Shown piece after piece: positions 21,786-30,294 of a DNA stretch of 64,000 bases; position 1 is the stretch's first letter; each line of letters begins with the position of its first letter. The notes below the pieces were generated by a model. That model was not told the DNA's origin and searched no databases. It worked only from the letters and a program-made list of their open reading frames with translations. This stretch comes from Sandaracinaceae bacterium (lineage in GTDB: Bacteria; Myxococcota_A; Polyangia; Polyangiales; Sandaracinaceae), in NCBI GenBank assembly GCA_044220955.1, contig JBGAQA010000008.1, positions 1 through 64,000 of the forward strand, given 5' to 3'. The translations under genes were made by a program, and so were the position numbers.

Positions 21786-22937
21786 ATGCGCGTCCGAGGC
21801 CTTCTCGCGCTCACGGTCCTCGCGATCGTCGGGTGCCGCACGCACACCGTGGACGACTGCCGCCTGCCGTGTGACGACGACGATCGCGCGTACTTCGCCG
21901 CGTGCGTCGCCTCGGGCAACGACGACGACCCCACGCAGGTCTGCGAGGCGGGCAACCGCCGTTGCTGCGCGCTCACCGCCGACTGCCTCGGCGATCTCGA
22001 CGATCAGACGGTGGTGACGAGCGTGGCGAGCTGCATCGACGTCACGGCCACGAACTGCGACCGGCCCTGCGACGACGCGGACGAGGTGGCCTACGAGGGC
22101 TGCGTCGCGGCGGGCAGCGCGACGTGCGCGTCGGGGGACGAGACCTGCTGTGGCCTCGAGGCCGGCTGCCTCGGCTCGCTGGGCGACCTGCTCATCAGCG
22201 CGGACGGATGTTGCAGCGACGCGTCCGACTGCCCGGCGTCGCTCTCGTGCGACCCGAGCACGTGGACCTGCGGGGGCGCGCCCGCGGGCTGCGGCGACGG
22301 CACGCAGAGCGCCACGGAGGAGTGCGACGACGCCAACATGGTGACCGAGTCGTGCAGCTACGGGGCGATGAGCTGCACGGTCTGCGACGCGAGCTGCCAC
22401 TCGGTCGCCGGCGCGACCCGGCGCTGCGGCGACGGCACCATCGACCTCTCGGACGGCGAGGAGTGCGAGCCGCCCGACGATCCCTCGATCTGCGACGCGA
22501 GCTGTCACTCGCTGCAGCCCGCGAGCTGCACCAACCAGGTGCAGGACGGGACGGAGAGTGACGTCGACTGCGGTGGGAGTACCTGCGCGGCCTGCCGCTC
22601 GGCGGCAGTCTGCACGGCCCAGAGCGACTGCCGCGCGCTGTTTCCCGCGTGCCGAGGCCTGGCCGACTGCACCGGGACGGTCACTTCCCCGGGCGTCTGC
22701 GTGGAGACGACCTCGTGCGACGACGGCGACTCCTGCACCGACGACCCGTGCGACGCGAGCGGCGCGTGCACGATGCACACGCCCATCGATCGCGACCACG
22801 ACGGAGACGGGCCGCACTCGGGAGACTGCGGGCTCGACTGCAACGATGCCGACCCGGACGTCTACGGTGGCGCCGCCGAGCTGTGTGACCGCATCGACAA
22901 CGACTGCGACACCCTCGTCGACGAGTCGTGCACGTGA
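21786..22937 (+). CDS. Cys-rich lipoprotein with myxobacterial CGDG repeats and C-terminal MopE-like metal-binding motif
   Basis: Lipobox IVGC; CGDG...EECDD x2; DGTESDVDCGG; CDDGDSCTDDPC; DCNDADPDVYGGAAELCDRIDNDCD. Confidence 0.85.
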   Translation: MRVRGLLALTVLAIVGCRTHTVDDCRLPCDDDDRAYFAACVASGNDDDPTQVCEAGNRRCCALTADCLGDLDDQTVVTSVASCIDVTATNCDRPCDDADEVAYEGCVAAGSATCASGDETCCGLEAGCLGSLGDLLISADGCCSDASDCPASLSCDPSTWTCGGAPAGCGDGTQSATEECDDANMVTESCSYGAMSCTVCDASCHSVAGATRRCGDGTIDLSDGEECEPPDDPSICDASCHSLQPASCTNQVQDGTESDVDCGGSTCAACRSAAVCTAQSDCRALFPACRGLADCTGTVTSPGVCVETTSCDDGDSCTDDPCDASGACTMHTPIDRDHDGDGPHSGDCGLDCNDADPDVYGGAAELCDRIDNDCDTLVDESCT

Positions 22938-28519: not shown

Positions 28520-30294
28520 GGGCGCAGCTCCCAGAGGTGCACCGGCTCGGCCCAGCCGGAGAGCCGGTGCAGGTCCGCGTCGAGCATCTCGAAGTGCTCG
28601 CCCGCGGCGGCCTTCACCGCGTCCGTCACCAGGATCTGGGCGGGCCGTGCGATCGCCTCGAGCCGCGCCGCCATGTTCACGACGCTCCCGATCGCCGTGT
28701 ACTCCATGCGCTTCTCGGAGCCGATGTTGCCGACCACCGCGTCGCCCGTGTGCACGCCGATCGCGAGCTGGATCGTCACGCCGTGGCGCTGCTTCCATCG
28801 CTCGTTGCCGGTCTCGAGCCACGCCTGCATGTCCTCGGCGGCCTCGAGCGCCCGGCGCACGTGGTCGGCCTGCTCGCCGGGGGCGCCCCAGAACGCCATC
28901 ACGCAGTCGCCGACGAACTTGTCGACGGTGCCGCCGTGCTTGAAGACGATCTCGGTGAGGATCGTGAAGAGCTCGTTGAGGATCGCCACCGTCGCCTCGG
29001 GCGGCAGGCGCTCGGCCAGCGGCGTGAAGCCCACCACGTCGGCGAAGAGCACGGTGATCGTGCGGCGGTCTCCGCCGAGGCGCATGTCCGCTTCGCGGCG
29101 CACGATGCGATCGACGAGCTGCTCCGGGACGTAGCGCCCGAGGTCGGTGCGGATCGCCACCTCTTTCCGGATCTGCTGCTCGCTCTCCGCGAGGTCGCGC
29201 GCCGCGCGGTTCAGCGTCTGCCCGAGCACCGCGAGCTCGTCCTTCGTGCCGACCTCCACGCGCTCGTCGAAGCGCCGCTCCGAGAGGCGCCGCGCGAACG
29301 CCGTGAGCCGCCCGAGCGGCCGGCTGATCGCGCCCGCCATCGTGAGGCCGAGCAGGAGGGCCACCAGGATCGCCGCGAGCACGACGCCCGCGATGATCAG
29401 CCGCATGTGCCCGAGCGATGCGTACGCGATCGACTGAGGCACCTGCGCGACGAGCGCCCAGGGGTGCCCGGCGATACCCGACGTCGAGCCGAGCATCGGG
29501 GTTCCGTCCGGCGCCGTGTACTCGCCCGCCTGGCTGAAGCGCGGGACCAGCATCTCGCTCGTCACGCTCGCGAGGATGCCGCCGTGCAGCTCGTCGCGGG
29601 CGAGCGTGCGCTCCACGCTCGGATGCGCGACGAGCCGGAAGCTCTGGTCCACGACGAAGATCGCGTCGGCTTGCCCCGGGAAGTGCGCCTCGCGCAGCTC
29701 GGCCACGCGCGCCTGGATCGGCGCGAGCGAGACGGCGGACGCCACGTAGCCCGTCGTGCGATCGCCGACGCGGATCCGCACCGCGACGAGCGCCCGCAGG
29801 CCTCGTGACGTGCTCGTGATCGCGCCGGTCGCGACGTGGGCGCGCTCGATCTCCTCGCGCATCTCGGCGGGAAGCGTCTCGGGCACCTCGACGCCGCGCA
29901 CGGCCTCTTCCTCGATCACGACGATGCGCGCGCCCTCGGCATCGTAGAGCGCAGCGTGGTCGATGGCGCCGTTGCCCTCGATGTGGCTGCGCAGCACGGC
30001 GAGGCGCGTTGCGTCGTCGAGCGTGGGGTCGGCGAAGAGAGCGCCTCCCACCGCGAGCGCGTCCTCCGCGCGGCCGAGCTCGGCGTCGATCGTCCGCGAG
30101 AGATCGTCGAGCGCGAGGATCTCCTGCTCGCGCACCATTTCCTCCACGGTCTCTGCGTTCACGTTCACGAGCAGCACGCCCACGACCGCGAGCGGGAGCA
30201 CCGCGAGCAGGCAGGCCATGGCGCCGAGCTTCGCGAACAAGGGCACGCGCACGCGGACGTTCGGGTCGGCCGGAGCCGCGCCTGGTTCGGTCAT
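28516..30294 (-). CDS. Class III adenylate cyclase with periplasmic Cache-like sensor and HAMP
   Basis: Two TM helices around a sensor domain; HAMP ISRPLGRL...KDELAVL; LFADVVGFT, DKFVGDCVMA, EYTAIGSVVNMAARLE. Confidence 0.93.
   Translation of the reverse strand: MTEPGAAPADPNVRVRVPLFAKLGAMACLLAVLPLAVVGVLLVNVNAETVEEMVREQEILALDDLSRTIDAELGRAEDALAVGGALFADPTLDDATRLAVLRSHIEGNGAIDHAALYDAEGARIVVIEEEAVRGVEVPETLPAEMREEIERAHVATGAITSTSRGLRALVAVRIRVGDRTTGYVASAVSLAPIQARVAELREAHFPGQADAIFVVDQSFRLVAHPSVERTLARDELHGGILASVTSEMLVPRFSQAGEYTAPDGTPMLGSTSGIAGHPWALVAQVPQSIAYASLGHMRLIIAGVVLAAILVALLLGLTMAGAISRPLGRLTAFARRLSERRFDERVEVGTKDELAVLGQTLNRAARDLAESEQQIRKEVAIRTDLGRYVPEQLVDRIVRREADMRLGGDRRTITVLFADVVGFTPLAERLPPEATVAILNELFTILTEIVFKHGGTVDKFVGDCVMAFWGAPGEQADHVRRALEAAEDMQAWLETGNERWKQRHGVTIQLAIGVHTGDAVVGNIGSEKRMEYTAIGSVVNMAARLEAIARPAQILVTDAVKAAAGEHFEMLDADLHRLSGWAEPVHLWELRP

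Follow-up and report, generated by a model that had tools for sequence, protein, structure and literature searches.

A co-inherited gene module of a LysM-FecR-barrel protein, a dCache adenylate cyclase and a Ser/Thr kinase in Myxococcota

FecR-domain proteins are encoded beside sensors of the CHASE2 and Cache types in many phyla, and the papers that we found describe this pairing without a mechanism. Here we analyze such a locus in a 64,000-nucleotide stretch of DNA (hereafter the window) from a Sandaracinaceae bacterium of the phylum Myxococcota_A (GenBank assembly GCA_044220955.1, contig JBGAQA010000008.1, positions 1 to 64,000 of the forward strand). In it, the gene for a LysM-FecR-FN3-barrel protein (C) converges with those for a dCache-HAMP adenylate cyclase (AC) and a Ser/Thr kinase (K), and is preceded by genes for a cysteine-rich predicted lipoprotein (A) and a barrel-OmpA protein (B).

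Among the closest described systems, LysM-FecR proteins of the COG4254/UCP029644 type are paired with a CHASE2 histidine kinase in the 'BiofilmReg' operon of the Burkholderiales (P. aeruginosa PA4035 type; PMC5192318). [quoted passage not shown] In the NsrA-CyaK/CyaD1/D2 systems of S. meliloti, an outer-membrane barrel protein is reported to be required to activate an inner-membrane adenylate cyclase (PMC7529298, PMC13001267, PMC5498481), and NsrA-CyaK is the only experimentally tested precedent that we found. YfiBNR is described as linking an outer-membrane and peptidoglycan-binding protein, through a periplasmic relay, to an inner-membrane second-messenger cyclase in the response to cell stress (PMC4887326). 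TraB has the order barrel-TSP3-OmpA, and TraA reportedly carries an invariant SCNCCP motif, a variable domain and MYXO-CTERM (PMC6372800), while the M. xanthus cyclases CyaA and CyaB have been described as osmosensing receptor cyclases (PMC7643160). The original prediction for this locus, made from the DNA letters alone, knew of no characterized system with such a layout, and overlooked the LysM-FecR operons with CHASE2 kinases, the clusters of CHASE2 cyclases with FecR proteins, and NsrA-CyaK. In our literature search, mostly of open papers without their supplements, neither FecR, LysM and adenylate cyclase together nor, for myxobacteria, FecR with adenylate cyclase and a threonine kinase were found described. 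We conclude that the pairing of a FecR-domain protein with a membrane sensor is already known, and that the three-gene core with two recurring accessories presented below is real and undescribed.

A three-gene core and its co-inheritance

The core consists of C (24622-27009, plus strand, 795 residues), K (28519-27188, minus strand, 443 residues) and AC (30294-28516, minus strand, 592 residues). These genes, like A and B, are intact open reading frames of coding-type base composition (GC content at third codon positions 0.93-0.95), and stop and start codons overlap by four bases between A and B (GTGA), B and C (ATGA), and AC and K (GTGA). The gene set, domains and overlaps first proposed for the locus are thus borne out by these data and the Pfam matches given below.

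A search for related loci returned only two close ones. Among 61 related genomes, C is present in 35, the N-terminus of the cognate cyclase in 34 and both in 33, with equal copy numbers of C and AC in 29 of the latter. Across 301 genomes of the phylum, C was matched in 57 at E<=1e-15, 48 of these at E<1e-50; the cognate dCache was found in 47 of those 48 and in 0 of the 253 others, and the pseudo-receiver tail of K in 29 genomes, all within the 47 with both C and dCache, these counts being based on 8-15 scored candidates per genome and on dCache and receiver profiles that contain sequences from many of the same genomes. For the study of gene neighborhoods, loci were fetched for 60 of 65 places from the survey of relatives and 55 of 70 from the phylum survey; of these, 57 and 46, respectively, lay above the FecR threshold. 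Flanks of 7 kb to either side were available for 37 and 32, making 69 full-flank loci. Co-location of the LysM-FecR gene with cyclase and kinase in other genomes, on which the original prediction had in part staked its case, was found to prevail: AC is present in 61 and the kinase in 65 of the 69, alongside the phylum-wide co-occurrence. By comparison, random 16-kb windows of this genome contain AC in 1.2% of cases, a kinase in 29% (0.6% with this tail), a TraB-like gene in 2.2% and an FHA-sigma54 activator in 2.9%, and around the 95 other kinases of the genome AC was encountered 0, a TraB-like gene 2 and an activator 5 times.

Among 82 loci that contain the complete core, the order AC>K>C is seen in 68 and the convergent order of the window, itself uncounted, in 5. 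Hence, the two facing operons, initially taken as the system, represent a derived, clade-specific inversion. A second copy in the same genome (contig C11) has the form of a single AC>K>C operon with a divergent FHA-sigma54 activator gene, A and B being missing. Seven gene orders retain C, AC and K together. Tree distances among the three proteins correlate at 0.75-0.89, which we do not take as proof because linked genes share their history. Nearby 'CHASE2 kinases' were rejected as a part of the module, as they are assorted PAS/GAF histidine kinases, with CHASE2 in one of the nine tested.

The partners also persist where the cluster has broken up. Six genomes have C and K without a nearby cyclase, yet each encodes an extra cyclase elsewhere; in the five tested, the same two loci (L051, L055) are, in the cyclase tree and the C tree alike, the nearest outside relatives of the cyclase that moved and of the C left behind, and the displaced cyclase is accompanied by an activator in all five and by a TraB-like gene in three. 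In four genomes C stands alone and AC>K is intact on another contig, and in one (G168) AC adjoins C and K is located elsewhere. The keeping of partners after three kinds of break-up argues for function, not mere linkage.

Anatomy of the core proteins and their accessories

C begins with a signal peptide, followed by LysM (residues 29-77), a FecR fold (~83-247), FN3 (~250-350), a beta-rich middle region (~387-541), a poly-Pro linker, a pre-barrel segment conserved in the alignment of homologues, and a 12-strand barrel (~584-794). The Pfam matches of the window protein to LysM and FecR both fall just under the cut-off; among 52 family members, 49 match FecR (PF04773) and 39 LysM at E<=0.01. The mature protein was modeled with AlphaFold2 (52 sequences, pLDDT 89, pTM 0.58). 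In fold searches, the FecR part matches the periplasmic domain of PupR (6ovm; Z 15.6, root-mean-square deviation 2.3, 128 residues aligned), the FN3 part reaches a Z of about 11, and the barrel matches FapF (Z 23.1) and COG4313 (4rl8; Z 21.6), with 12-strand autotransporter barrels at Z 17-18; no fold match is listed for the middle region, which was barely tested.

Identity along the homologues is 0.54 in LysM, 0.46 in FecR, 0.45 in FN3 and 0.35 in the barrel; going by these alignments, the constant part of C is the periplasmic arm (LysM-FecR-FN3), not the barrel. Our barrel profile matches 134 of 222 fetched homologues, a PF13505 barrel is found instead in 14 of 50 scanned profile-negative homologues at E<=0.001 (4 over the cut-off), and the homologues of two loci (L112, L113) stop before any barrel. 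Because the barrel is swapped or lost in homologues, it is likely to be an anchor. In one protein (P0071) the LysM-FecR-FN3-middle region of a C homologue is joined to an OmpA_C tail, thereby constituting a fusion of C with B. A search of the ESM Atlas yielded mostly unnamed clusters, with PF13557 as a lead, and 2442 clusters were hit by the arm profile at E<=1e-30. Those relatives of C that are nearest and carry a name are labeled Sandaracinaceae/Sandaracinus. We also observed that Cys37 (24730-24732), within LysM, is near-invariant (76 of 77 sequences), being the sole Cys of the LysM region in 54 of 77, with a second one in 22, and that 68 of 77 dCache domains are devoid of Cys. A redox role or an inter-chain disulfide is possible for Cys37.

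In AC, two hydrophobic segments flank the dCache domain, giving the layout transmembrane segment-dCache-transmembrane segment-HAMP-class III cyclase, and Pfam reports dCache_1 (weakly), HAMP and Guanylate_cyc. Of its 77 family members, 54 match dCache_1 and none CHASE2. D419, K459, D463, T533, N540 and R544 are invariant in all 43 sequences compared; we take these to be, respectively, the metal-binding Asp pair (D419/D463), the ATP-specific Lys/Thr substrate pair (K459/T533) and the canonical Asn/Arg (N540/R544). AC is thus predicted from its residues to make cAMP, and the 15 cNMP-binding matches in the genome are possible readers of it.

K matches Pfam Pkinase, is predicted to be soluble and cytoplasmic, and has the VAxK, HRD..N and DFG motifs of Hanks-type kinases, invariant in 49 of 49 sequences. 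Its fold search, with a list filled by kinase domains (PknB, Z 33.5), bears on the kinase domain. In profile comparisons, the C-terminal tail matches receiver domains, and the top match is to PleD, in its second receiver domain (E 7e-9). It has A/P at positions 376-377 (42 and 44 of 49) and no phospho-accepting Asp, wherefore we call it a pseudo-receiver; in the model its helix 2 is missing. The Ser/Thr kinase had been correctly recognized at the outset, its receiver-like tail having gone unmentioned. Between the kinase and the pseudo-receiver lies an RxxRM linker (27590-27620, minus strand; residues ~300-310) with invariant R303 and R306 and low model confidence, a candidate regulatory or docking motif.

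Two accessories recur beside the core. B (22934-24625, plus strand; Pfam OmpA and a weak TSP_3) combines an N-terminal export signal, a predicted beta-barrel, TSP3 repeats and an OmpA_C domain with a GHTD...LS..RA motif, and a close homologue (in L040) matches the PF13557 barrel. Its inclusion in the system was sound in the sense of a recurring partner, a TraB-like barrel-OmpA gene being present in 34 of the 69 full-flank loci. The genome has nine TraB-like barrels; module-linked members are diverse and other paralogues of the genome interleave with them in the tree, ruling out a single module-linked clade. The second accessory, the FHA-sigma54 activator, occurs in 30 of the 69 full-flank loci; it is absent from the window, could not be seen in the original prediction, and is a likely output in other copies. 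Module-adjacent activators form a dedicated clade of 37 rows (FastTree support 0.81), which includes only 2 of the genome's 14 such proteins, 12 being outside; five module-adjacent ones (L124, L126, L130, L131, L136) fall outside it, and in L120 an FHA-GAF-HD gene is situated directly 3' of K. Away from both module copies, the same genome also encodes a second activator of this clade (contig C39, near 9879), as well as a TraB-like protein that falls in a module-linked clade (contig C4, near 16413); both may be displaced module partners.

A (21786-22937, plus strand), a protein of 383 residues with 49 Cys, has a lipobox-like IVGC at residues 14-17, as judged by eye, and a C-terminal MopE-type motif in Pfam. 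Its N-terminal domain is found in 11 of the 61 relatives, all among the 35 having C, and every match lies beside the module, in the order C>A>B in two loci (L039, L041) as against A>B>C in the window. This distribution points to a genuine but local addition confined to one sub-clade, rather than the module part that the lipoprotein had been supposed to be.

Outside the module, a 145-bp palindromic dispersed repeat (27009-27153), with perfect 13-bp ends, lies between the convergent stops of C and K. The genome has 104 occurrences of its 12-base end, most of them paired at a spacing of ~145-163 bp around interiors that have diverged; the family is REPIN/MITE-like, and five close relatives showed no such repeat between C and K. 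A scan of the region for promoters and terminators gave results at chance level. Upstream of A are two large membrane-protein genes not kept beside the module, one (17079-19109, plus strand) matching the PMT_2 glycosyltransferases and the other (19127-21706, minus strand) without a Pfam match. Elsewhere in the window, a gene pair (35231-37084, minus strand) resembles AbiEi/AbiEii-type toxin-antitoxin systems, by eye and from the reading frames only.

A possible envelope-spanning relay and its rivals

We give about an even chance (probability roughly 0.5) to the proposal that C, AC and K work as an envelope-spanning sensor in which the arm of C regulates the cyclase. C would be suspended from the outer membrane via its barrel and bound to peptidoglycan via LysM, with its FecR-FN3 arm touching the periplasmic dCache of AC, and B might serve as a second tether stabilizing the arrangement of outer membrane and peptidoglycan. 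A shift in their spacing or integrity would be transmitted through HAMP to switch cAMP synthesis, and K, held in the same complex by its pseudo-receiver tail, would add a phosphothreonine output, which the FHA-sigma54 activator beside many copies (not the window's) could read. What we observe are the domains, the intact catalytic residues, the barrel fold, the co-inheritance, the partners kept after break-up, the fusion of B with C and the dedicated activator clade. The relay from FecR to Cache is our inference, as are all other physical contacts, the nature of the stimulus, whether cyclase or kinase acts first, and the role of the activator as a substrate.

Several points weigh against such a relay. 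The support is wholly comparative and comes from kin genomes that are not independent, and the profiles for dCache, pseudo-receiver, TraB and activator were built from neighbor genes, which biases them toward detection there. With about 0.27 identity, dCache shows the weakest conservation; B is absent from 35 and the activator from 39 of the 69 full-flank loci, and the window copy has no activator adjacent. One genome (G187) has two C-like LysM-FecR homologues and no cognate cyclase; in the vicinity of one homologue are genes for a kinase, a HAMP-GAF histidine kinase and a REC-GGDEF protein. A second genome (G060) likewise yielded no cognate cyclase match. The smc02177 gene of S. meliloti, which encodes a FecR domain and is a Clr target, is reportedly dispensable for plant-signal perception by the CHASE2 cyclases (PMC5498481); hence, a cyclase-linked FecR-domain protein need not be the cyclase input. 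Moreover, the dCache could bind a small ligand by itself.

This last point is the kernel of the rival that survives best, which we consider somewhat unlikely: AC would sense a small ligand alone via a dCache pocket, and C and B would be co-regulated envelope outputs or scaffolds of a cAMP/kinase/sigma54 circuit. The AC dCache profile does match ligand-binding chemoreceptors and structures such as McpH and PctA, co-transcription in the order AC>K>C is compatible with a feedback target, and the S. meliloti gene offers a parallel. However, the dCache alignment has no invariant residue, and the amino-acid-binding motif is not seen in the consensus. The one-to-one copy numbers and the partners kept after three kinds of break-up also speak against it, as does the fact that FecR-FN3 proteins accompany the unrelated sensor domain CHASE2 too: in distant sister loci within the phylum (L141, L142, L145-L147), FecR-FN3 proteins adjoin CHASE2 cyclases or a CHASE2 kinase, and only there does CHASE2 stand where the module has dCache. 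A barrel-OmpA gene is found in sister loci L143-L147, and in one of these (L146:8091-9218, minus strand) a gene for a tandem cNMP-binding protein lies between it and the CHASE2 cyclase.

We regard it as unlikely that C, B or both use their barrels as genuine surface receptors, as has been proposed for NsrA and as with contact proteins of the TraB type. In that case an extracellular protein, prey or kin cell would bind outside, A would help in recognition in its own clade, and the arm would convey the signal to the cyclase. The requirement for the NsrA barrel in CyaK activation (PMC7529298), the TraB architecture of B (PMC6372800), the conserved pre-barrel segment of C and the retention of A through rearrangement would all suit such a role. 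Nevertheless, the loops of the C barrel have at most 13 residues, and this barrel is replaced by another family or lost in homologues; A occurs in a minority of the C-bearing relatives, and the module-linked B genes do not stand apart from other paralogues.

Even less probable is an autotransporter-like C, with LysM-FecR-FN3 exposed on the cell's exterior to adhere to foreign peptidoglycan and with indirect or no signaling. Myxobacteria typically lead a predatory lifestyle, and 12-strand autotransporter barrels are among the fold matches of C, but FapF and COG4313 outscore them, the model has no helix ahead of the barrel, and homologues with swapped or no barrels occur. That C, AC and K are unrelated neighbors co-inherited by chance is scarcely credible, for although signaling genes are plentiful (208 kinase-domain reading frames in this genome), the phylum-wide co-occurrence, the seven triad-keeping gene orders and the retention after break-up all contradict it.

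The envelope-spanning relay lends itself to a more general proposal, which we put forward tentatively: FecR-FN3 arms may be general protein ligands of inner-membrane Cache and CHASE2 sensors, the myxobacterial single chain, attached to outer membrane and peptidoglycan, serving to gauge distance mechanically or to sense cell contact and so to drive a complex of cyclase and kinase, in which the pseudo-receiver would couple cAMP synthesis to phosphothreonine activation of the dedicated FHA-sigma54 activator. The module offers a compact, strictly co-inherited test case, with one anchor-relay chain, a cyclase, a kinase and a candidate transcriptional reader. Read in this manner, it would supply an orphan receptor cyclase with a proposed input, and would pair one among the numerous FHA-sigma54 activators of myxobacteria with its cognate kinase.

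Comparison with known systems

The resemblance of A and B to TraA/TraB extends to the barrel-TSP3-OmpA order of B and its placement after a Cys-rich gene. Unlike TraA, A lacks the SCNCCP motif (a six-frame motif scan of the genome gave two matches, neither of them SCNCCP and neither in A), and its C-terminus (...VDESCT) has neither a hydrophobic tail nor an evident MYXO-CTERM; without SCNCCP in A, the pair is ruled out as TraAB.

With FecA-FecR-FecI, C shares the FecR-type periplasmic fold. It differs in having no cytoplasmic anti-sigma domain and no transmembrane helix (no 19-residue hydrophobic segment scores above 1.7), and so C is not an anti-sigma factor. As first noted for the window, extracytoplasmic function (ECF) sigma factors and TonB-dependent receptors are missing: none of the genome's 33 Sigma70_r2 matches and none of its 8 TonB-receptor barrels lies on this contig, which, with the lack of a transmembrane helix, rules out C as a classical FecR. 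An ECF-like cluster is near only six loci; two other FecR genes of this genome (contigs C257, C259) are ~1.2-1.3 kb from a sigma factor.

In domain content, the module resembles the BiofilmReg/COG4254 operons, where an exported LysM-FecR protein is likewise encoded with an inner-membrane sensor and without an ECF sigma factor or TonB receptor. In contrast to their CHASE2 histidine kinase and response regulator, the partners here are a dCache-HAMP cyclase and a Ser/Thr kinase; C, moreover, has an outer-membrane barrel at its C-terminus. With the Campylobacterota clusters it shares a receptor class III cyclase next to a FecR-domain outer-membrane protein; however, dCache takes the place of CHASE2, and the kinase, barrel-OmpA protein and FHA activator that of the phosphodiesterase and TPR protein. 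NsrA, likened to C by description only, has its barrel at residues 600-1200 and acts with CHASE2 cyclases, and no kinase is described for it. The likeness to YfiBNR is one of working logic, with no homology claimed: that system uses c-di-GMP, a soluble YfiR repressor and a lipoprotein anchor (Pfam found no YfiR or GGDEF domain among the five window genes), whereas the module joins relay and anchor in one chain. If the general proposal holds, the module would mirror cell-surface signaling by way of sigma54 and cAMP, with neither a TonB receptor nor an ECF sigma factor.

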